The translations under genes and the position numbers were made by a program. A stretch of DNA of 64,000 nt. Source: Paecilomyces variotii. Its lineage: Eukaryota. The stretch lies in the NCBI GenBank assembly GCA_004022145.1, contig RCNU01000004.1; one strand, 5' to 3'. The notes under the pieces were generated by a model, which did not search any database, was not told where the DNA came from, and saw only the letters and a program-made list of their open reading frames with translations. How positions within the stretch are numbered: the first letter of the stretch is position 1; every line of letters begins with the position of its first letter. Shown in pieces: positions 4,467-19,080 of the stretch.

Positions 4467-7286
4467 CTATAAGAATGCTGGCTCGGAGCTATCGGACGTC
4501 GTATTTTGCTGGCGTCGGCTGTTCAAGAACATGTCAACCATACGCTTGCTGCTAATAGTTGACCGGAGCTCTTGGAGCTTCGTGTGGTCGTCCAAGGCCA
4601 TATTACTATATGAAGGAATCGAGCTAGTCCTCGAGTTTTCTTTTGCTGACCTCACGGTATCCCGCCGACTGCGGATTGATTGAAACTGTACCCCTTTTGC
4701 GTCTCTAAAGGGGCTGTTTTGATGCTGCTCACGGAGTGAATACCTCTGCCGAAGCCTGTTTGGCTCTCTTCTGGGAGTAGGTGATTCCGGGACTTGGGTT
4801 GACCCGTCTGACTCTGACACTGAATAGGTCCCAGGTTGGTCTCTTGCAGCGTCTTCTTTCGAAGACGAGACAGGTGATAGTTTAGGCGCCTGCTCAGATC
4901 CTCCGAATACGTCAGTCTTCTCGCCGTGATTCTGCACTTGCGTTGTGTTAGAAGATTTCCGTAGCGACAAGGATTTGACTCTACTTTGCGAACGATATAA
5001 TGGCCTCGAAAAATTATTCTGTACCGGAATCTGCAGTTCTTCGAGAGGATTCCGGCTCTTGGAAACCTCATGTCCTATGAGGCTCTCAGGATGCTGAGGC
5101 TCCTGGTCGTCGATTTGCGTATCTTCCCTGTAATGTTCTCTTGCTAGCGGCTGGCCCAGTGGTGCGCCACAACTGTGCTTGTCAATTCTAGCCATCTCAG
5201 AGCTCATCCAGGATTGCCAATCTCCGCTTGGTTTAATAGACACAACGGGAGGCTGAGAACTGGTCACTCTTCTTGGGGAAACGTATTTTGTCCTCTGGCT
5301 TTCGAATATCGTAGCCATACCTCGCGCATCTGAAGATCTAGGTGAATTATCGACATGCACCATTGGCCCCTGCTGCCTAGGGCTGTTACCACCTGTTGTC
5401 CTGGAGTATACGCTGGGAGAGTCCGGTTCGATCTCTCCATGGACGAGTCTAGAGACGATAACGCTTCCAGAATCATCATCAGAATAATCCCGTGCTCTAT
5501 CCATCGAAGCCATGGCCCGTCTGTATGGGCTCGGTGTTTCCGGTTTGTCGCAAGGAGATGTTGGGAAGAACGTGGGCCCAGATTCTCTTAGAGGTCGGGA
5601 TGATCGATAGTGAGATGTATTGCTCTGACGCTCGTTGTGTTGCACTCGGTTTTGACCTCCCGAATAAGGGTTCCGCACAGGAGATGGGCTTTGTGTGCTG
5701 AAGGGCCGTACATTGGCTGTGAAAAATGATGTTGTCGATTTCATCGACGACTCACTTGGCACCTGACGAATACTACGGCTACTGCGCAAAGAGTAGACAG
5801 ATGAAGCTCTTTCGGGGATGGGTTGGCCCCCTGGAACACTGCCAACAAGTATCTGCTCATCTTGCTGTAGAGCATTATTATCGATACGTTTCATCAACGC
5901 GGAGTAAACACGTTGAGTATCGACGGAGCCATCCAGTTTGTGAGCGCTGGGCCTTGCCCTTAACGGTTTGCTGAATGCAGAATATCCACGTCTAACATAG
6001 CCTTCTGGCGTAGTAAACCCAGACGACTGCGCAGGGTCTCCGTACTCTCGGATGATACACAAATGATTGCTGTCGACCGGGTTCCTGGTCGCAATGGTAT
6101 TGGCTGCAGTGGAATCTGTCCAGCTTGTCACACGTGAATTCGACGTGCAAAGACTCTCAGAGCTTTTCATCATTCGCACGGTTGGTGCTTCGCTGACACG
6201 ACTCTCCATAGAATCACGGTAGTACTCGTAAGGCGCACCCTCAGAATAGTTATTTTCGGTTGGGGTCTCTGGCAAGACGCCGGTATCTGCTTCTCTTCGT
6301 GTCGAGATGTAATCACCAAACTGTGACTGAGGAGAGTACAGATTCTGATGTGGAAGCTTTTGCTCGGTAGAAGTTGCTCGCCCGAATACACGTTTCAATC
6401 CGTTCTTTATTGTAGATACTGACAGAGTCCGGAATTTCGAACGGAGACCTCTTCCTGTTTGTTCCGTCCAGAAAGGGACAGAGTCGAGCGCGCTTCCAGA
6501 CTCACTAGAGGCTCTAATCGTCTTCCTCAGTGGCTTTTGTCCTCGCCTGTGTTTCAGGGCAAGAAGGGATGACCGGCGTTGTTCCCCTTGGTGTTCCATA
6601 TCCCTCAAGTACTGATCGCGGGCCAGCTGTATGGCTGCATCATGACTTTTAGTATGCCTCAACGGTTGAGAATGTTGGTTTCTTCCTTTGAAGAAGGACA
6701 TAGACCGCCTCAGACTTCCATGTTGAGGATGATCCCCGGATCCTTCCTTTTGTACGTGACTTCCGCTTGCAAGGCCTGCCGTTCGACTGTCGGTGAAATC
6801 GAATGTACGATGTCTAGTGGAGAACATCGATTTAGCCTTGCGAAGACGTCGATAAGATGAAGGAACAGAAGAATCGCCGCCATCCAGTCCTTGGAACTCG
6901 CTGATCGGCGGCAAGATACTCGGGGAAGTAGTGCCATCTGCAACAGAGCCTGCAGTAAACGGTATAGAGGGCGATATGCTGGCTATTGACATTTGGCTTA
7001 CAGAACGTCCCTCATCCGCAAACCGTATACTCGGGGGACGATGTCTTTGAGTAAAGGCAATGGCCTCATTTCCATTCGTATAGTCGCACGATCCGCGCGA
7101 ATCGCCTGAGGATCTCTCACTTGCGCGCTGGAATGCACGGGAAGCTGCTACCATAGCATGATGTTTGGCGGTTACAGGATCTAGAGGCTCTGGTAGTGGA
7201 GGTATCTGACGGCGTTTCTGAACTGAAGATGTGGATTTGGCACGTCTCAACCGACCTCTCGCGTCGTATGAGGCTCTCGTAGTCAT
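4467..7286 (-). CDS. Uncharacterised Ser/Arg-rich, largely disordered protein (~939 aa)
   Basis: Single 2.8-kb ORF; likely start MTTRASYDARGRLRRAKS at 7286; no recognisable domain. Confidence 0.75.
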   Translation of the reverse strand: MTTRASYDARGRLRRAKSTSSVQKRRQIPPLPEPLDPVTAKHHAMVAASRAFQRASERSSGDSRGSCDYTNGNEAIAFTQRHRPPSIRFADEGRSVSQMSIASISPSIPFTAGSVADGTTSPSILPPISEFQGLDGGDSSVPSSYRRLRKAKSMFSTRHRTFDFTDSRTAGLASGSHVQKEGSGDHPQHGSLRRSMSFFKGRNQHSQPLRHTKSHDAAIQLARDQYLRDMEHQGEQRRSSLLALKHRRGQKPLRKTIRASSESGSALDSVPFWTEQTGRGLRSKFRTLSVSTIKNGLKRVFGRATSTEQKLPHQNLYSPQSQFGDYISTRREADTGVLPETPTENNYSEGAPYEYYRDSMESRVSEAPTVRMMKSSESLCTSNSRVTSWTDSTAANTIATRNPVDSNHLCIIREYGDPAQSSGFTTPEGYVRRGYSAFSKPLRARPSAHKLDGSVDTQRVYSALMKRIDNNALQQDEQILVGSVPGGQPIPERASSVYSLRSSRSIRQVPSESSMKSTTSFFTANVRPFSTQSPSPVRNPYSGGQNRVQHNERQSNTSHYRSSRPLRESGPTFFPTSPCDKPETPSPYRRAMASMDRARDYSDDDSGSVIVSRLVHGEIEPDSPSVYSRTTGGNSPRQQGPMVHVDNSPRSSDARGMATIFESQRTKYVSPRRVTSSQPPVVSIKPSGDWQSWMSSEMARIDKHSCGAPLGQPLAREHYREDTQIDDQEPQHPESLIGHEVSKSRNPLEELQIPVQNNFSRPLYRSQSRVKSLSLRKSSNTTQVQNHGEKTDVFGGSEQAPKLSPVSSSKEDAARDQPGTYSVSESDGSTQVPESPTPRREPNRLRQRYSLREQHQNSPFRDAKGVQFQSIRSRRDTVRSAKENSRTSSIPSYSNMALDDHTKLQELRSTISSKRMVDMFLNSRRQQNTTSDSSEPAFL

Positions 7287-8078: not shown

Positions 8079-9605
8079 ATGGCTTCGGGAGAGAAAGAAG
8101 AGACCAATATTGTACGGATCGATGGCAGGACACTCGAAGGAGGCGGTCAACTTGTGCGAAATGCGTTGGCCCTATCAGCCTTGACCTCTATCCCGGTCAC
8201 CATCGATCACATTCGCGGAAACAGAAAAGGAAAGACCGGCTTGAAGGGTTCGCACACTGCGGCAGTGAAATTTCTTGCTGAGATTTGCGGAGGACAAGTT
8301 TTGGGCGCACGTGTCGGGTCGTCACAGATAACTTTTTACCCGCAAGGACGATTGAATGAGCCATGCATCAAACCAGAGTACACCATCCAACAATCGACGC
8401 CTGGTTCGATATTCCTCGTCTTCCAGGCTTTATATCCGTACCTACTCTACGCCGGGGCACGTACTCATGCGCATTGGCCTATAAGACTGAATGTCACCGG
8501 TGGAACTAATGTTTCGTTTTCTCCTTCGTACGACTATATCGCACAGGTCCTAGTTCCTAATCTTGAAAAGCTAGGTCTGCCACATCTCTCAGTCAACCTG
8601 AACAGGCGTGGATGGGGGACTGGGCCACTTGATCTTGGATCCGTGACATTTGAGATTTCTCCGCTCACATGCGGCCCAACAAAAGATGCGACAAGTGCGC
8701 ATGATAAATCATCCTGTGTTGATACTGACGGAATAGCTGCATCTCAACCTCGGTCCTCAGATCAGGGGGTATTAGACTCGCATGGTCCAAAGTTGGACCG
8801 ATCCATCCCGAAATTCCCGTCCTTCAGCATCAGAAGACACAGACGCGGTACTATCACCCGCATAGAGGTCACGATACTTGCTCCGGAGATCCCTTTACCA
8901 ATTGATGATATACTCAGTGATAGCGATCCAAACACGGCTAGACGACGCTCAAGAACCACAGGAACTTATACTGTTCGTTCGTTCTTGCAAGCGGAAACAT
9001 GCAGGGGCCTGGCGGATGCTCTAGCCTCGTTGCCTAGCCATCTATTTTCGAACAGTGATAACAGAATCCCCGTCAAGATACACATATCAGAAGCAACGGG
9101 CCACCCTACGCGTCTTTACGTGCTTCTGGTAGCTCATACTTCCACGGGCTTCAGACTCGGACGCGATGCGTTATTAGATGGCCGTGCAGACAGTGAGTCC
9201 ACCGAGTCTAGAAATAATAAACCTGGAAGGCACAGGGACAGACAACACCGCTCTTCGCACTCCAATTCATCTAAAGATAGCATGCGGTCAAGGATCCAAC
9301 GGATGATCGACAGATGCATAACTGACTTTATGGAGGAGTTGCAACCAGCGGAAGGGCCGGGTGACGAAGATAGTACAAGCGGCCCCGATATACGAGGCAT
9401 CAGCAAAGAAAAATCATGCGTTGACGTTTTTATGCGGGATCAACTCGTCATTTTTGAAGCTCTTGGAAAGCTCCAAAACACCAGAGATGAATCAGGGACA
9501 TTAACTGGTATAGATGAAGAAATCGAGGAAGACGAGCACAGTTGGAGTATGCATACTCGAACAGCAATGTGGGTGTGCGAGCAGTTCCTGGGGGCCAAAG
9601 TCTGA
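8079..9605 (+). CDS. RNA 3'-terminal phosphate cyclase (RtcA-like)
   Basis: IDGRTLEGGGQLVRNALALS, GLKGSH, GGTNVSFSPSYDY, DVFMRDQL and C-terminal SMHTRT (position of the adenylated His in RtcA). Start taken at ATG 8079. Confidence 0.85.
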   Translation: MASGEKEETNIVRIDGRTLEGGGQLVRNALALSALTSIPVTIDHIRGNRKGKTGLKGSHTAAVKFLAEICGGQVLGARVGSSQITFYPQGRLNEPCIKPEYTIQQSTPGSIFLVFQALYPYLLYAGARTHAHWPIRLNVTGGTNVSFSPSYDYIAQVLVPNLEKLGLPHLSVNLNRRGWGTGPLDLGSVTFEISPLTCGPTKDATSAHDKSSCVDTDGIAASQPRSSDQGVLDSHGPKLDRSIPKFPSFSIRRHRRGTITRIEVTILAPEIPLPIDDILSDSDPNTARRRSRTTGTYTVRSFLQAETCRGLADALASLPSHLFSNSDNRIPVKIHISEATGHPTRLYVLLVAHTSTGFRLGRDALLDGRADSESTESRNNKPGRHRDRQHRSSHSNSSKDSMRSRIQRMIDRCITDFMEELQPAEGPGDEDSTSGPDIRGISKEKSCVDVFMRDQLVIFEALGKLQNTRDESGTLTGIDEEIEEDEHSWSMHTRTAMWVCEQFLGAKV

Positions 9606-12600
9606 ATTTGAAGGGTGGCATGATAATAATAATGATAATACTAATACACCTCTAGATTTGGCTGCAAATGGTTATAGAGCAGCCGGAATGTATTGGTAGT
9701 TTCAGCCGCCCGTATTCTCGATCATCTGATAACCCACAATCATAAAGATCACTGTCAGTCAGATAAGATGACAACAACTTCTGTCTTCTGAACCCGAAAC
9801 CAGACGAATGAAGGAATTGATAGACTCGGTGTCGGTCTACTGACGACTCCGCGAGAAATGGGCTTCAAACTTAAGGCGAGAAAGAAGTCTAGACCCCAAC
9901 GTTAACTGGAAGATCACCACATAATCCCTGGCTGCACGATAGCTATCTATCTGCTATTTCAAAGTCCTCCCAGATTCTCCAGGAAAAGCCCCTAGATATC
10001 AGATGTGAACGCATCACATTTTCTCGGAAAAAGGGCCCCTTTCGGCCTTTTGCCGACGAAGAAGCTCAAAGCCACGCATGCAACGCCACTAGGCAGGGGA
10101 GCCTCCGCGTTATCAGCATTCCGAATGCCATGCCATACCGATGAAGCTACGACGACATGCGCGGTCAAAGACGGCCGGTCCTTGGTTGAGTATGGTATTG
10201 TCCTAAGTACTCCTCGAACCACCTCGTGTTGTGGAGAGATGGGTCGTAAGCACATGCGTATACATCGAGTAGGGACTAACTACAACCCATCTTGCTTATT
10301 CCACAAACGCATTGTCAGAAACAGGGAAGATGCCATGTTAAATTAACCATTTCACACTGGATCGTCCAACTTAAAGCAAATTAAAGGCGAGACAAGGGGC
10401 AAAGTCAAAAATGGTTGAACGCAGTCACCGCACAGTGATCCCATCCCATCCCGATCAGACCAGACCCTGCCGGCTCGGGCGGATCTAGAACTACATACTG
10501 TAAGTACTAGATACACGGCGGGATCTATTGGGCCACGCGGATCAACTGGGAATATGGTACACATTACCATAAATTACTGGAGTGGGAATTTCGACATGGA
10601 ATTGAGCTGTGAATAAGTAGGGATAGATGATAACTAACAGACAGCATCTTTAGTACTTAGATTCACATCGAAGTAACTCAAGAGAGTAATGCATAATCCG
10701 AACAGTATTCCCACTACAAGCAATAATGTGGCTCGGCCCATCCCTGCATATACCTAACCCATGCCGTCTTCCTTGCACCTGTATTAACTTTATTAACTCG
10801 TGGCGCAGTTGCAGCAGCAACAGTAGTAGTACTACTACATAGCGGAACAGTAACCAACCAAAACGGAACTTCATCAACTAAAACTTGTTATCCGGATAAA
10901 GGTACGTAATCATTATAAGCACCTCCAGTCTCTTCGTCTCTTCCGACTCACGGCTTCGGATCGGATCGGATACTAGGTAGAGCACTGCTTTCCGTGAAAG
11001 TGAAATGATAAAATAATAATGCATACGCATAACTCTCCGAATGGAGAATTAAGTACTACATTATTATTATTATTATTGCTATTGCTACTATGCATTGCAT
11101 ACTACAATCCACTGTATTATTATTGTTATTATTATCGGACTAAGCTATTGTACTAGTAAGTAATCTATCACATTCTTCATCCCTAAAGCCTGGAAGTCTT
11201 GCAGTGCAATTTGAGGTCAAGCTAGTTTCGAGTCACAGAGAGAGAGGGAGCTCGTGCGTTACTACACTAACTAACTACTGTATGTATTATTATTGTATTA
11301 TTCTGTACTAAACACCCAGATTCAATCCCAGTGCCAAGATGGGTGCGGGAAGGGGGAGAATTCTATTAAGAAAACTAACAAGAGTCATTCGTATTCGTAT
11401 CCCGATCCACTATTATACTCGATTAGTGACTTGTATGAACATGATATAGATATACTGTCGAAGTATTTCGTCTTCTCGATTTTATATACAGTAATTAATC
11501 TACAGAGATTAAGTTACTCTGAAAGTGCTTTACACTACTACTTAATGTATAAGAACTCCACAAACCCCAGATTCTGTCACCAGTCATTGTGATGTGGAGG
11601 AAGGAAGGGTTGCTAAGTAGTACCATACATAACTCCAGCTTGTCTAGTAAACGATGCAGTAACTAAGTGGAATTTATCCCTGGAGATCTAGAATATTCGT
11701 ATAGAGAGTCTGATAGGTCCGTCGCTAGAGTCTACGTATCATAGCCGCAAGGGTTACACTGCAATTTCGCATGGTCTGGTCTGACGGTCTAGGAAGGTGG
11801 ATGAATGGGACCTCGTGGATGGATGGATGGATGGGCCTTCATGATCCTTCCGTTTGCGGCCCTCTTGACAGGTAAGTGCGGAGCGGAAAAAGGATCCGAA
11901 TTATGGCGTCTACAACCTTGTGTGTGTGTGCAATGGTTCTCTCTCCGCACTTCATTCTAGATGGGGACTACAATGATTGTTATTAATGAATGAGATGGGA
12001 TTGGATTTGGAAAATCTCCATGGTAATCGAGTAGAAAGTAAAGTGCCGCGCCGTACATATCTCCCGTCTCATCTGGCATGGATATCATACTGATGTTGAG
12101 AATACCTAGGACTAAGCGGAGACATAAGCGGAATAAGCGGCATAAGCGACAGTAATTGTTCGTTGTAAAGCTGACAGGTGGTCCGAAAGTGGTAATTATT
12201 AACGCATGGTCAGAGGCTCAGAGCATAGTTATCCAAAGGGCGAGGGTCACGACGGTGGATCCGCCGTCGTAAAATCGAGACGAGACTAGTTCTGGAGGAC
12301 TGGGAGCTTCTGTAATTTACTCGAGCTTCTTGCTGAGCTTCTGGAATCTGGACGGAATCTCCATCTTACCTAAGATCAGAAGGCATGTCAAGACTCAAGC
12401 CACACTTGTCTCAGCCTAATAATCAAAATAACGATTCAGCTTTCCCCTTCTCCGATGCCCAGTGCAACGAGGCTGACAGCCCTGGCGCTGCGAGGCTGTG
12501 GCTGAGCCCCGTTTACAGCCCCAGTGGGTAACTTAACATCTGACTATCCAGTCGATAGATCAATAAAGCTGGGTACGTACGGAGTACGTAGTGTCTTTCT

Positions 12601-14316
12601 TCGACCCGTGGATGGTTCAACAGCCACCCCTGGCCCACTGAACGAGAAACAGATTTCTTGTAAGTTCTTTTTTCGTTGTGAACACGATGAGAACTTCCAC
12701 ATGTATCTAGTGCTGCTCGAAAAGAGATCCAGTCGATGGTGAGGCATTTCGGAGACTGCCCTCTCTTCTGGTCGCCGTTTGGCAAACAGAAAGAAAACTC
12801 GACCCACCCCCTATTATTTATTTTCCGACAGAGAACAAACAGAAAAAAAAAAACAGTCACAGCGTTTTTCTCATACGTAGCGTAGCAACCGAAAAATTCT
12901 AACGGGGCCTTAGTCAGTTAGTTTAGGGGCATAAAATCAAGGTTCTGTGGTGACACTGACAGGCGCCCCGACAGCCCGTCCGCGCGAAACCCTAGTGGAA
13001 GAGTTAGAGTAGTGCCAGGGGGAAAGATCGAGGGCCGAGGCGCTCTGTCCAGGGCCCTTGTTCGGTGGCAAATTATGATTCTACCATACCATAGGGTTAT
13101 TGACAGAACGAAGGACGAAAAAGGGAAATGGACAAGGAGAAGGAGATTTCGGCGCGGCTGGAATCTGCTCCTAGCTGTTCTCAACGGACTCTTGGGTCTT
13201 TTTGCCTTGTTGCCTTGTTTGCCCTGGTGTGCCTCCTCCTCATTCCAGCCCAACCCCAGGCTTTTCTTTATTTTTCTGGAGAGAAACGACACTAGCGATG
13301 CATGCACATTGCAGGGCGACTGTCTCGATCTCGTGAAGGGAGACGATCTGCCCAACTGGGGGGGAACTTGAGGGGTAAGCTAGAGGTGAGGTCATCGCCT
13401 TGGCATCGAGGCTGTCGAAACAGCAAGAGATCGATTGATTCATACTATTATTATTATTCATTAACTTCCGACTCCGTATGAGGATCAAGTCTAGCTGCGT
13501 GGAGCAGCGACTCTGCCAATACCATCCGGTACGGACGGCACACGGCTCGAAGGGATGCCAGCGGCTGGGGACGGATGGCGGAGCATAATTTCATTTCTAG
13601 CGTCTTTGCGCACGCTATCGACTAAGTATCGACTATCGACGATTGCAGCAAAGGCGAATCCACGCGCTCGCGGCGTGGATGGCTTCTCGGCCGTGGTATC
13701 ACAATCACACAAAAGAGCATAATTAAAATACATGATAAGAGGAACAAAAGAAGGAAACAAGATATATCGTAAGAGACAGATTTCCCACCCATTCCCGTCT
13801 GTCAGCATGTTTCCAGACGAACAATGGTGGCGGTGGGAAGGCGGGATTGCCCCGCGGATCGGATCACAAGAGATCCAACATTAAAAGAGATAATCAAAGA
13901 AATGATTAGAAAAGAGTACACAGGGGGTAAGATCTAAACATGAAACCAATTCCGCTGAGTTGACCTCACTGCGCGCCGGCGGCAGTCCTCATGTCCTATC
14001 AACCACGCGTGGTGTTCTATCTCCGTCAATATGCCCGTCCGTAACTTTTCCCTACCAATCCCAGAATGAACGAGAGCGTCGAGATGCCAGATCGCGACGG
14101 AGGTCAATCAGCCCGAACACCAGACCAGGTTGCACGAGCTTCGCTGCCGACGGGGAATCCCAATACGTCAAAGGGAGAAAAAAAGGGGAATAAAACCGAG
14201 TAGTAGAAGAACGCCGTCGCTTTCCGTCCGAAACAACCTCCGGATATGCACGAATCAGAGACGAGAAGAAGACGAAGACATCGCTGGTTGTTTCAGAGTA
14301 GTCGCGAAACAAACCA

Positions 14317-14593
14317 TCAGACCTCGTCAATCTTGATCTCTGATTCTCGGGTGGTCTCCGCCAGGTACGGTCTCCGGTAATGATCTCTGGGCTGAGACAG
14401 CGGAGACGAAAGTGCTGACGGCCGTCGTAGTTTCAGAGTCTGCAGGGAAAGAATTGCTCAGTCGGAGTTCAAAGATAAGACAATCCAGTATCTAGAATAA
14501 TGAGTGACAACTGACCATACAGTCTGAGCACTTTCCTCCTGGGATGTTGACACGCCCACGGCATCCGCGGGGGTAGTTGGCGCAGGAATACAT
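14317..14593 (-). CDS. Spliced 66-aa Cys4 microprotein (C-x6-C-x10-C-x2-C), putative Zn-binding; not in ORF track
   Basis: Exon 1 14593-14516 (MYSCANYPRGCRGRVNIPGGKCSDCM). Intron 14515-14440 (GTCAGT...ACTGAG...TTCTTTCCCTGCAG, 76 nt). Exon 2 14439-14317 (TLKLRRPSALSSPLSQPRDHYRRPYLAETTRESEIKIDEV*). Start context CAACATG; first ATG downstream of a TATA box. Confidence 0.8.
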
Positions 14594-14899
14594 GTTGGAA
14601 ATAGTCGACACGACCACGGATGATCAGAATTGTAAAGCAGTTTGGTGGTTGACTGGATGAGAGGATAAACGTTCACTCCGCAATAGACTCCGGGTTCCTT
14701 CCTGGATCCTTGTTCTCGAAACTCGTTCGAATCGTGGGAGTATCTATGCCTTGCTGGACGCGCAGCACGTATACTTGGCGGACGTCGAGATCTAGGATCT
14801 CCAGTAAGATGGCAGTAGACCTCGTGGTTCGTATTCGCAGTCTGACAGGTAGTTCAGTCGATATCTGCTGACTGCACAGTGGACGGTGGTATGTAGTTG

Positions 14900-15022
14900 T
14901 CTGGTCGTATGGGGTAGTGGAAAGGAAGGTCGAGAACTACAGCAGGACAAATAAGTATAGCGGCACAGAAGGATCTGAGCGGAGGGCAGCCCACGCGACA
15001 GGAGAGCCAAGTGGGATTTATA
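14900..15022 (-). promoter_or_regulatory. Core promoter of the microprotein gene (TATAAA + pyrimidine tract)
   Basis: Minus-strand TATAAA at 15022-15017, followed by CT-rich TTCTCGACCTTCCTTTCCACTACCCC (~14936-14911). No minus-strand ATG between it and 14593. Confidence 0.55.
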
Positions 15023-17709
15023 CCGACGTAGGCCCGTTGTTAACAGCTGTGCTGATCGATAGTGGGTGATTTGTCCAATCCTGGGGGGGAATAAGCACGA
15101 GCATCGACTTTTGGGCTCAGCGCAAGGCACCGCCTTGTATAGTTTTGACTCGTAAAAACCGGGCTTCGTACGAGGCCAGGTTTACATTACTAGTGGGCTC
15201 ACAGTCTCCATCTGGCGCAACGGATAACTATCCATCGTACTTTATCGGCCTTTGCGAACTCTACTTTACTACTTCTCGATCTCCATCTCCCCTCCTCGCC
15301 CTTCCGCACCTGGTATGGTTCCCACTTTCGCCTCCCCAAGGGGCTCACGTCTCCATCATTGCGTGCGTTCTGGATCTGTCCAATACTACTTACTGTACCC
15401 GCCATGGATCAAAGCTCGCTCTCTATGACGCTCTTCCTTTCTTTGCCGCCATTCCGCCAGGAGTCATTCATTCATTCATTCATCCATTCATGGCTGGGAG
15501 ATGCCACCCGGGGACATCACTCAATTAAACAGACATATCAGAGCCAATACTACTGCTGGCAAACTATGCTCACCATCACATTGCAGGCCGCGTGGAGAGC
15601 TGGCGCATATCCCTGTCAGAGCCCTAAGCAAATAGCTAGTGGCTCCGAAAGATGAGTTGATTCCTGCTGTTATTACTTATTGTTATTGTTACGATGGCCC
15701 ACTCGCCGAACAAACAAAGTTACCAACGTTTCCCAATCCTCAGTTTCGGGTCTGCCTGGATGAATGACTCGGTGACAGCGCTGAGTCTGGACCTGTCTTT
15801 CTGTTTTTTTACCTTCGTATCGTTTCGTCGCGCTTCCAACAGCCTTGTGGATCCCTTTCAGCATAGGTTTCCTGCACCGCGGGAGTCGCCGTTCTAGCTC
15901 GATTTGGACCGGTGCTGTTCTGATCGATGGAACAGACGAGCATGCATCGTTGACTGACATGGGCAGTCTGCAAACAGGGTCGTTCTCGAACCGGGATGGG
16001 CTCCTCAGGCACTCTGCGGATCCAAGGACTTGGACCAGAGACAAAAAGAGTATTATTACACAGTGCGGAGTCGAGATGCTGGAAGCCACCTTCGTCGTTT
16101 CGCTGCCGCTTCATGATTATTCTTTCCGTCACCCCGGAGAACAGGCCGCGCGAGTCTGTTTAATTACTTGTTCGTGCCACTGGAGCCTTTTGGCATATGA
16201 GTCGAATGACCCAGATGCAGAGGTTAGCCTGTCCAGCTGTCATGACCTTGGCTTTGGCCCCTCTCTTTACTGACTTGCAGCGACTAACTAACGGCCCGTA
16301 TGAAGCCATTGCCGAGGATCATCCGTGTCGGCTCACAGATAGACTCCGGCTGGTTCCATTGGTATCTGCTCTATAAACAATCATAGCAATTCTTTGACGA
16401 TACTGGCTTCCTGTGCCTCGGTATTCGAGACGTTCTCTGCCTGTCCATTATTATGGCTGCGATCCTTTCATCTTCCGTACCACGCCAATGGAAACCTGGA
16501 ACGGCAGCCGGGCATGCCGTCTTTGACACCAGAACCCCGACCATGCCGTAGCTGCCATGATCAAAACAAGCATAATGTGAATTAATTACAAGACCTGTGT
16601 CCAGGCGTCAGACAAGACGCACTCGAGCCATACCATACAAACCGGTCATACCATGGGCAGGCGGGGAACGTTCTGCGACGCCCTTGTCTGGAGATGCAAC
16701 TGGCTCGAAAAAGGTCTTAAAAGATCACCAGCTAAACGCCCTGGCCTCTCCCTGGTCTAGCTTACTTGCGTGTCAATCCTGTCCTTGTTTCTTCATGGCT
16801 CTGGCTCGGGGCCATGACAGGCGCCCAACAACCATGACTCTCCGCATCGACGATACCGTTGCAGACTTCCTTATCGCACGCTGAAACCCCGCTGGTCGTA
16901 TCGACGACGCCTCCTACAGTCAGATGGTATCATCTTGAAACGTCGCATTGCCGCAAAGCATAATTGCGGAAGAATACCGGCTTTCCATTACGCGTTGATA
17001 CTCCTGTACCGTGTAGTTTCTTTCCGGGGTATTCACGGCATACATAGCGTCCTTTTCAGTCCGCACAAGGTCGCGCGCTAGTATGGAGGAATGACCATAT
17101 GATCATAAACATGGGTATGCCTACCTTTAAAATAATCGTCAAAGATGCCATTTGCAGACAAGTTTCCGTGACCGGCTCATAGCCAATTCCGGGTACTCCC
17201 TCATTCCTGACATATGACGGCAGCCAATTCAGGGCTCACAGCCACCTATTGCCAGCAACTCATCATGGCTCAGCCAGGCCAGCTTATCATTAACAGAAAC
17301 ATCTATACGTGGTTGACCGCTCCTTCTGCTTACTGACTTCGATGGAATCTTTGATATTAACTGGTTAAAGCGGTCAAGAAACACATATAGGAGCCGTGGC
17401 AGCTCACTGTTGTTGATGGTCTCCAACGCTATTGAATGGATCTTCGAAACGCGGTTTACCATCAAGACTATACAACTAACTAATCATTCACCATGATTTC
17501 CAGAGGTCTAGAACATAGATCCGAGTCCCCTCGAATTACCAATCCGTAAGCGGTGGCCAAGTGGGATAAATTACCAGCCGGCTGTCTACGGCTGCCAGAG
17601 CCTTAATGTGGTAATTAGGCGGATACCGCCACCGTGCGCTGGTCATCCGGCTCACATGCGCACTTCATAATAGCAATGATAATAATTCATGGCCCACGAG
17701 GAAAGTTCC

Positions 17710-19080
17710 TTAGTCTTCCAGAATCGATTTCAACACAAGCCATCCGCCAGCGGCGCCAATTCCGGTCGCGAGAAGAAGGCCAAGGCCCTCCCACGTTGTT
17801 GACAGATACGCAAGGAAACCCACTATGAGTTCTTTGGTCCTTGCAGCTGCACGCCTGCTCTCCCAGTTTGGGTCGAGCTGGAATGGTGGCAGAGGCCTAA
17901 CATCGCCAGACTGATCGATGCCTGAAGAACCTCGGAGAGGTTCCAATAAAACCGAGACAGATAAGGCAACGGCACGGTGATCAGAGGTTGGGAACAGAGG
18001 AAGAGAGCTGTAGACGTGGGGCTGGACATGCCCACGTTCCTTCGTCCCCGGTGGCAGGTCTAGATATAAGATCCGGTCGCACCAACTGGGCCAGCGGTGT
18101 CTGGCCCATTTCCACTCTTGAGTATCACCAAGTCGCGCCTCTAGACATGCCAGTGCTGAATACTTGTAGGTGGGTGGGAAGCTGATCAGTTCCTCCGATA
18201 GCCCATGCAGTGTCTTACGCCTCTGAAGCTCTCGTGTGAGCTGGTCATTCTTTAACAGATGAGAGAAATGTCGGGGACTATCCACGTCCGCGGTAGGTTG
18301 AGGAAAGCGCCTATGGTCGTCTTTCGACGGCGACGTATCGCACGTGCGGTAATTCAAGTCACCGGCGACAAATAAATGCGACCCAGGCGCAAAGATCCCA
18401 GAATGGCTCGCGCTTTCATCTGATGTCTCGTCACTCAACAATGCGATCCTCTCCTCTCTATCTTCTCCTGATGCCCTGTTCCTCCGCCTGACGGTTTTCT
18501 TCTTCCCAAAGACTAACCGCTCCACAATGCTCTTCCAGTCCTCGTTCCTGCGTTCGTATTCTTCTTCCATTGGCGCCAGATGTGCAGCAACAAACGTCAA
18601 GTCAACCGTCTCATTGTGACCATCTTCCACCATGTAGCCCAATCGCGTTCCCACCGCTCCTTTGTTGCCCATCTCGAGAACGCCCACTCCCACTTGCGCC
18701 GTCTCCGTCCAAGAAATCCTATCGGAAACGTCTGATCTGACGAAGACCATCATTGCCGTCATGCCAGAGTTCTCCCTGATGACCTCGACGTAGTCCACCT
18801 CGCTCCCCCATTGTTTCGACACCGCAAGGTCAAGCGCACGACGGAAAGCGTCAAAGAACGCGGTGAGAAAAGAACCGCCTAGAAACGCATAAGACATCGG
18901 CGCGATCTCTTGGAGTGAGAGAACGATGATCTCGGGGGCGTCGTATATTGGTCGTCCATCGTTGCTATCCCTTGCTGACTGGGGAAGGGCATGGAAGAAG
19001 TGTTCCGCGACGAAATCGGTTTCGATCAAAATCCTGGCGCAGTTGAAAGTGAGAATGTAGACATTGACAAATCGATCCAT
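17710..19080 (-). CDS. Inositol polyphosphate 5-phosphatase with C-terminal hydrophobic tail (Inp54-like)
   Basis: LTFNC, SLQEI, GNKGAV, FVAAHL, GDLNYR, FPPTYKY, PSWCDRIL and SDHRAV motifs; C-terminal hydrophobic segment LIVGFLAYL...GLLLATGIGAAGGWLVL. Confidence 0.9.
   Translation of the reverse strand: MDRFVNVYILTFNCARILIETDFVAEHFFHALPQSARDSNDGRPIYDAPEIIVLSLQEIAPMSYAFLGGSFLTAFFDAFRRALDLAVSKQWGSEVDYVEVIRENSGMTAMMVFVRSDVSDRISWTETAQVGVGVLEMGNKGAVGTRLGYMVEDGHNETVDLTFVAAHLAPMEEEYERRNEDWKSIVERLVFGKKKTVRRRNRASGEDREERIALLSDETSDESASHSGIFAPGSHLFVAGDLNYRTCDTSPSKDDHRRFPQPTADVDSPRHFSHLLKNDQLTRELQRRKTLHGLSEELISFPPTYKYSALACLEARLGDTQEWKWARHRWPSWCDRILYLDLPPGTKERGHVQPHVYSSLPLFPTSDHRAVALSVSVLLEPLRGSSGIDQSGDVRPLPPFQLDPNWESRRAAARTKELIVGFLAYLSTTWEGLGLLLATGIGAAGGWLVLKSILED

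Follow-up and report, generated by a model that had tools for sequence, protein, structure and literature searches.

The stretch of DNA analyzed here, 64,000 nucleotides from contig RCNU01000004.1 of Paecilomyces variotii and hereafter termed the window, carries on its minus strand a gene for a 66-residue protein with four cysteines, the ATG of which, judged by reading the sequence, lies at 14593–14591 in the context CAACATG. The gene opens with a non-coding first exon (14995–15089, the 5′ end being approximate), which is followed by a 58-nt 5′-UTR intron with GT..AG ends (14937–14994; CT..AC on the plus strand) and by the remaining 5′ UTR (14594–14936), which is devoid of ATG and ends in CAAC. 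The next segment, delimited by sequence and conservation, is a coding exon (14516–14593) for residues 1–26 that holds the Cys4 head (C4, C11, C22, and C25), and a phase-0 intron of 76 nt (14440–14515, GTCAGT..CAG) separates it from the second coding exon (14317–14439), which encodes residues 27–66 (14439–14320), including an LxLRRP motif and a disordered tail, and closes with TGA at 14319–14317. The 3′ UTR of ~720 nt (13596–14316) ends at a poly(A) site near 13596, where a loose poly(T) end was found in run X11; a contig of run X1 continues past this site to 13304, and no convincing open reading frame (ORF) was found within 13596–14316, as the frames look random. The mRNA thus defined has a size of 1.3–1.6 kb and a coding sequence of 201 nt, and its product is a basic, presumably intracellular protein of 7.5 kDa with a pI of 9.3. 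The spliced translation is letter for letter identical to database protein P0004, a 66-aa “hypothetical protein” of P. variotii.

The RNA evidence consists of contigs from four runs of four studies (X1, X3, X5, and X11), aligned to the stretch 9400–17900. The splice joint 14439/14516 is present in three of the four runs (X1, X3, and X11), each from a different study, and is flanked by 255 letters on its shorter side; the same three runs carry the second joint, 14936/14995, as well as contig pieces covering 14516–14936. Past the latter joint, the X3 contig extends for another 95 letters and thereby reaches ~15089, the X1 and X11 contigs reach ~15024, and contig depth drops within the bin 15080–15363. 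X11 is recorded as a cDNA metatranscriptome. X5, also labelled a metatranscriptome, contributes a single unspliced contig of 13.9 kb over the whole stretch at 95–99% identity; it is taken as DNA-like carry-over of a related strain and hence provides no evidence against splicing. The initial annotation, made from the sequence alone, had described a complete spliced minus-strand gene, and its ATG, 76-nt intron, TGA, and product all proved to be as stated, the quoted product matching both the spliced translation and P0004; spliced RNA across 14515/14440, which had been suggested as a check, is now in hand from three studies. While the coding part of that drawing stood, its 5′ anatomy did not, since an extra upstream exon and the 58-nt 5′-UTR intron exist. 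The locus is almost certainly a genuine, three-exon protein-coding gene.

The 5′ leader has features of its own. The TATAAA at 15022–15017, which had been proposed as the promoter, is placed by the contigs inside the transcript, within the first non-coding exon (14995–15089); lying in the transcribed leader, it cannot serve these RNAs as their core promoter. The absence of ATG over ~420 nt ahead of CAACATG was borne out, as the 429 nt from 15022 to 14594 contain none, against 5.1 expected from base composition. The spliced leader, at least 438 nt long, is equally free of ATG, and the nearest one upstream (15104–15102) falls just outside the mapped 5′ end, transcription presumably starting near 15090–15101; the AUG of the microprotein is therefore the first to be met by a scanning ribosome. 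For comparison, a scan of metagenome contigs yielded ten related loci, L001 to L010, eight of them distinct, including two intron-less, cDNA-like contigs (L001 and L002) with intact ORFs of 65 and 68 aa, flanked by at least 518 and 318 nt upstream, respectively, and by ~490–530 nt downstream. The nearest upstream ATG lies at −511 in the window and at −458 in L001, −275 in L003, −632 in L006, −628 in L007, and −234 in L010; none occurs within the 318 nt available for L002 or within 750 nt of L005, and L009, which offers 20 nt of upstream sequence only, was excluded from this comparison.

The gene is located between two larger ones. The flanking plus-strand ORF, ending at 9605, encodes an RNA 3′-terminal phosphate cyclase (RtcA; Pfam RTC, E = 6e-52), and the flanking minus-strand ORF, ending at 17710, an inositol-5-phosphatase-like protein (Pfam Exo_endo_phos2, E = 5e-49), so the neighbors converge, as had been noted. 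The interval between them was regarded as an 8-kb gene desert, but it carries other transcripts in the RNA contigs, and a search of 9400–17900 against Rfam gave no match. In particular, contigs of X1, X3, and X11 cover 15418–17900. Within this segment, 15418–17211 is transcribed and shows a plus-strand GT..AG joint of 83 nt (~16221–16305) in X1 and X3; the spliced plus-strand sequence contains no convincing ORF, the longest (114 aa) looking random. This transcript may be a divergent non-coding RNA that shares the promoter region 15100–15418 with the microprotein gene. Since other units transcribe most of the upstream stretch, the free promoter amounts to a few hundred bases, from ~15100 to 15418, and the ~3 kb of upstream regulatory DNA postulated earlier cannot be maintained, given that 15418–17900 is largely under other RNA contigs, the spliced plus-strand unit among them.

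Comparison with the relatives indicates that the protein is under constraint and that its intron keeps its position. A phase-0 GT..AG intron after codon 26 was found in all six distinct genomic sequences, the window included, in agreement with the intron position that had been expected to be shared; its length is 76 nt in the window, 72 nt in L003 (= L004), 162 nt in L005, 105 nt in L006, 92 nt in L007 (= L008), and 60 nt in L009, and L010 breaks off at the intron GT. In exon 1, the mean pS is 0.653 and the mean pN 0.140 (36 pairs of nine sequences), and in codons 2–16 nearly all differences fall at third positions; the proposed test for dN/dS below 1 thus came out clearly, pN being far under pS, and the protein is subject to strong purifying selection. 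When 12000–17700 of the window was compared with the related loci by blastn, the exon-1 stretch alone matched, with 80–94% identity, and the UTRs and the intron are unalignable between genera. Conservation of the neighborhood, also predicted, was found in part. In L003/L004, the phosphatase gene is the upstream neighbor and keeps the orientation it has in the window, and RtcA (5476–6069) lies downstream but shares the strand of the microprotein gene, being locally inverted with respect to both the window and L009; in L009, RtcA is downstream and convergent, like that of the window, and L007 has neither RtcA nor the phosphatase within 3 kb.

The gene had been described as hidden and missed by ORF callers, yet the databases carry it as an annotated gene for P. 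variotii and for many further species. A search with the 40-aa translation of the second coding exon found the annotated 66-aa protein of P. variotii, which belongs to a 90% cluster of five allelic 66-aa forms with at least 12 NCBI accessions of this species and 18 contigs; as the same model or an allelic variant is already on record, the claim of a missed gene is wrong for eukaryotic pipelines. The positions that vary among the alleles (46, 56, 59, and 61) are all in the tail. Residue 46 is His in the window and Tyr in three annotated alleles, and a 3-nt deletion at 14380 (14380–14382, codon 46), which keeps the frame, removes it from the contigs of X5 and X11; it is also missing in all other genera. 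A single-base insertion behind 14592 is subject to alignment ambiguity and can be placed equally well immediately upstream of the ATG.

The relatives form a sharply delimited family. With P0004 as the query, 27 of 27 candidates (36–116 aa) were matched at E up to 10, with lengths of 59–89 aa, and phmmer/hmmsearch E-values against these 59–89-aa proteins range from 1e-37 to 1e-10. When 1.84 billion representatives were searched with phmmer, 58 proteins scored E up to 0.001, from which P0041 and P0065 were dropped as low-complexity repeats, and a profile of 65 clean members matched, at E up to 0.01, 111 proteins out of 4312 candidates, all 111 of them named “hypothetical,” “uncharacterized,” or “unnamed” and none with a Pfam domain. 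Annotated relatives occur in Eurotiomycetes, Dothideomycetes, Pezizomycetes, and Orbiliomycetes, the class having been looked up for five species and the other species being presumed to belong where placed here. They come from Eurotiales (Aspergillus, including fumigatus, niger, and flavus, Penicillium, Talaromyces, Monascus, Rasamsonia, and Thermomyces), Onygenales (Paracoccidioides, Blastomyces, Emergomyces, Trichophyton, Malbranchea, and Ascosphaera), Chaetothyriales (Cladophialophora), many Dothideomycetes, Pezizomycetes (Tuber, Morchella, Pyronema, Ascobolus, and others), and Orbiliomycetes (Drechslerella). Named examples are DTO166G4_7411 of P. variotii, ANI_1_432134 of A. niger, PABG_00264 of P. 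brasiliensis, and LEMA_P008590.1 of Plenodomus lingam, and the gene in the window is itself a member, with the same head motif and Cys spacing, a similar length, the shared intron position, and, relative to some of the loci, part of the synteny. Among the named matches, there was no Sordariomycete, Leotiomycete, yeast, or basidiomycete. This gap outside the four classes could reflect loss, divergence, or missing annotation; in Sordariomycetes and Leotiomycetes, the gene may have been lost or altered beyond recognition. As far as seen from sequence comparison, this unnamed family appears restricted to Pezizomycotina.

The earlier statement that the protein belongs to no named family was upheld. 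Pfam searches with the exons, with P0004 (E up to 10), and with the 27 members returned no family, a DUF6485 match at E = 0.13 in one of the 27 members being taken as noise; a profile search of the PDB gave no match at E up to 10; and the ESM Atlas offered unnamed Ascomycota clusters only, with nothing usable when the head alone was compared with named clusters. In the literature, no paper was found that contains the head motif or one of the 12 locus tags searched, and a keyword search brought up nothing specific; supplementary tables may list such loci. Given that the gene and its relatives are in public databases, novelty does not attach to the gene; it lies in recognizing that these Cys4 microproteins form an ancient, uncharacterized family with sharp limits, a fixed intron, and long leaders in which no upstream AUG occurs. 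The first 30 residues are under very strong constraint across four classes of Pezizomycotina, and yet the family is unnamed, lacks a domain model, and is treated in no paper found by our searches; such tight conservation without characterization makes it an inexpensive and well-delimited subject for initial functional work. Its members are found in food and industrial molds (Aspergillus niger, A. flavus, and Penicillium) as well as in human pathogens (A. fumigatus, Paracoccidioides, Blastomyces, and Trichophyton).

Many of the database entries are faulty gene models. A quality screen covered 162 proteins of relatives, 159 with the head motif, of which 126 are clean. Thirty-two of the 159 motif-bearing models are aberrant, including one unspliced translation made in this analysis, and 29 of the 31 aberrant database models run into the intron GT, which is recognizable from X-V-[CSRG] past the fourth Cys; other faulty models have long N-terminal extensions ahead of the conserved Met. 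In P0038, Tyr replaces the third Cys and the sequence starts with V, and this entry may be a fragment or a pseudogene. A family profile would mend the many wrong models.

The conserved part of the protein is a head of 30 residues that begins at the initiator Met and follows the motif M[YF]SCxNxxRGCRGRxNxxxx[KR]CxxCxxLxL. M1, C4, N6, R9, G10, C11, R12, G13, R14, C22, and C25 show no variation in any of the 65 clean sequences, and a second set of 50, mostly from Pezizomycetes and Dothideomycetes, has the same invariants plus S3 and N16. The proposal that the four N-terminal Cys constitute the conserved core is thus well founded, since all 65 keep Cys at 4, 11, 22, and 25 with the spacing C-x6-C-x10-C-x2-C. 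Most members (54/65, with 62–79 residues) have exactly four Cys, and a fifth is present at position 15 or 17 in 7/65. As His is absent from 57/65, the Cys are the only candidate ligand set. The head has a pI of 9.8 and the tail one of 5.6. The N-terminus has no hydrophobic stretch, its first 25 residues being polar and basic, and the absence of a signal peptide, which had been asserted, agrees with this reading of the sequence.

A first AlphaFold run, with 27 sequences, gave a pLDDT of 56 and was set aside for its low confidence. With 65 sequences, AlphaFold2 gave pLDDT values of 92, 94, and 93 for residues 1–30, with one strand at 2–3, another at 14–15, and a helix at 23–27 that begins at the CxxC pair; the head is thus confidently predicted to be a compact unit. 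In a Foldseek search with this predicted head, zinc domains of the ZZ, MYND, ZAD, RING, and PHD kinds accounted for nine of the ten matches listed, the exception being rank 2 (9a4v_B), and no significant structural similarity to ZZ, MYND, RING, PHD, or ZAD folds was found. These domains are small and Cys-rich, like the microprotein, in the model of which the final CxxC likewise begins a helix.

By contrast with the head, the tail differs between lineages and, as had been suggested, is disordered according to the prediction, with pLDDT below 50 for residues 41–66. It reads RRP..SPFAQPRDY[RK]R in Eurotiales and RKPS..[YF]R[RK]PSIDFS in Pezizomycetes, and in Dothideomycetes it is Ser-rich, ends in YSAMTSSFASL, and has LNLQ with no RRP. 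L-x-L-R-R-P is nearly invariant in Eurotiomycetes, and the residue following RRP varies by species (S, A, L, G, T, Y, or N). RRPS, which the initial annotation had put forward as a defining PKA site, is present in the protein of the window and in all five P. variotii alleles, but across the family RRx[S/T] occurs in 17/65 members, R[RKH]xx[S/T] only in 31/65, and neither in 17/65, and the Dothideomycete members lack RRP; it is not a defining feature.

Among the known systems, the Ecl1 family (PF12855) bears some likeness to the microprotein. Its members are small fungal lifespan regulators, reportedly zinc-binding, with four Cys near the N-terminus and a low-complexity tail; the microprotein is also small and fungal and has four conserved N-terminal Cys ahead of such a tail. 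The Cys pattern of Ecl1, however, is presumably CxxC...CxxxC and not C-x6-C-x10-C-x2-C, and membership was rejected, as neither P0004 (E up to 10) nor the 27 members matched PF12855. A metallothionein was likewise dismissed: 54 of 65 members have exactly four Cys in 62–79 residues, and no Pfam metallothionein was matched. Zinc-finger micro-proteins of archaea and bacteria, which are stand-alone proteins of fewer than 70 aa with one Cys4 site and are thought to act through partner binding, offer an analogy only, for there is no sequence relation and the gene of the microprotein is eukaryotic, interrupted by introns and provided with long UTRs.

Considered as a whole, the microprotein is probably a zinc-stabilized basic mini-domain, that is, a binding module with a lineage-specific tail. 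The invariant Cys and the confidently predicted mini-fold suggest that the four Cys hold one Zn(II) and that this ion stabilizes the head. The CxxC pair would sit at the N-terminus of the sole predicted helix, as in a zinc knuckle or a treble clef. CxxC at a helix N-terminus is the usual geometry of structural zinc sites, and the first pair, C-x6-C, is to our knowledge unusual for zinc knuckles. The zinc site would in turn fix a small, strongly basic Arg/Gly/Asn surface, which may bind a conserved partner, be it nucleic acid or the acidic surface of a protein, and the class-specific motifs of the disordered tail might tune or relay the binding of this partner. A bolder version, possible albeit doubtful, starts from the near-frozen sequence of the head, preserved from truffles and nematode-trapping fungi to Aspergillus: the head would be a zinc knuckle that serves a core machine of nucleic-acid handling or signaling as its subunit or regulator, overlooked so far owing to the small size of the protein, and the lineage-specific tails would rewire this machine in each class.

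Other Cys chemistry has to be weighed against the zinc-stabilized module, in that the four Cys could carry an Fe–S cluster or Cu(I) or form a thiol/disulfide redox switch, with the protein acting as a sensor or chaperone. In keeping with such chemistry, the invariant Cys are the only conserved residues of a ligand type, most members (57/65) being without His, a fifth Cys is found in the middle of the head (15 or 17) in 7/65, and no structural match links the head to a known zinc fold. However, the compact single-site mini-fold predicted by AlphaFold, with CxxC at the N-terminus of a helix and pLDDT above 90, speaks for a structural site, and the invariant residues that are not ligands (N6, R9, G10, R12, G13, and R14) suggest a binding surface; moreover, we know of no Fe–S or copper motif with the spacing C-x6-C-x10-C-x2-C. 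Such chemistry is accordingly considered unlikely. More improbable is the view of a micro-regulator controlled by PKA through RRPS and by heavy transcriptional control from a 3-kb upstream region, even though RRPS is found in the window and all five alleles, L-x-L-R-R-P is nearly invariant in Eurotiomycetes, and 48/65 carry at least one of the two forms RRx[S/T] and R[RKH]xx[S/T]. The stricter form is confined to 17/65, as many as have neither, the residue after RRP is variable, and Dothideomycete members have LNLQ and no RRP; as for transcription, the upstream 3 kb is largely taken up by other RNA contigs and TATAAA lies within the transcript. PKA control may nevertheless operate in some lineages.

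Small size, four Cys, and the dibasic sites RR and KR might also bring to mind a secreted or processed Cys-rich peptide, such as an effector, a defensin-like peptide, or a RiPP precursor, but this is highly improbable for several reasons: the N-terminus, MYSCANYPRGCRGR, read as sequence, is polar and basic with no hydrophobic signal stretch; the initiator Met and the residues next to it are invariant, which is unexpected for a cleaved leader; the neighbors are genes for an RNA cyclase and a phosphatase, with no biosynthetic genes; and the single locus is conserved in saprobes, pathogens, and truffles alike. The notion that the RNA is non-coding, with an ORF that arose by chance or is merely regulatory, could draw on UTRs that are very long beside a coding sequence of 201 nt, but it is effectively refuted by an exon-1 pS of 0.65 against a pN of 0.14, by the 80–94% identity of exon 1 where UTRs and intron cannot be aligned between genera, by an ORF that is intact in every clean relative of four classes, by an indel at codon 46 that keeps the frame, and by a leader without ATG. 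The zinc-stabilized basic module with a lineage-specific tail remains the preferred reading.

Several minor observations concern the surroundings of the gene. In X11, a loose poly(A) end after 9746, ~140 nt past the cyclase stop codon at 9605, suggests that 9746 is the poly(A) site of the RNA 3′-phosphate cyclase mRNA. Another X11 contig, of 1567 nt, runs from within the phosphatase gene down to 16832 (16832–17709), suggesting that the phosphatase 3′ UTR measures as much as ~880 nt or else that the plus-strand transcript is overlapped here. On the downstream side of the microprotein gene, low-depth contigs of X1 occupy 12138–13163, and X11 alone has a 52-nt joint, 12907/12960, with the CT..AC ends of a minus-strand intron, in a low-depth contig (12773–12960), which is a weak unannotated transcript; stretches free of contigs, such as 9968–11955, were not taken as evidence of silence. 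X11 also contains a joint between opposite strands, 14939/15083, with 33 letters on the shorter side, which is probably an artifact of assembly or library preparation near the 5′-UTR intron. Two segments were skipped as repeats when the contigs were aligned, namely 15456–15498, which is a short (ATGA)n microsatellite, and 11050–11139, which sits in the AT-rich region 11001–11500, with a GC content of 0.35 compared with ~0.5 around it.
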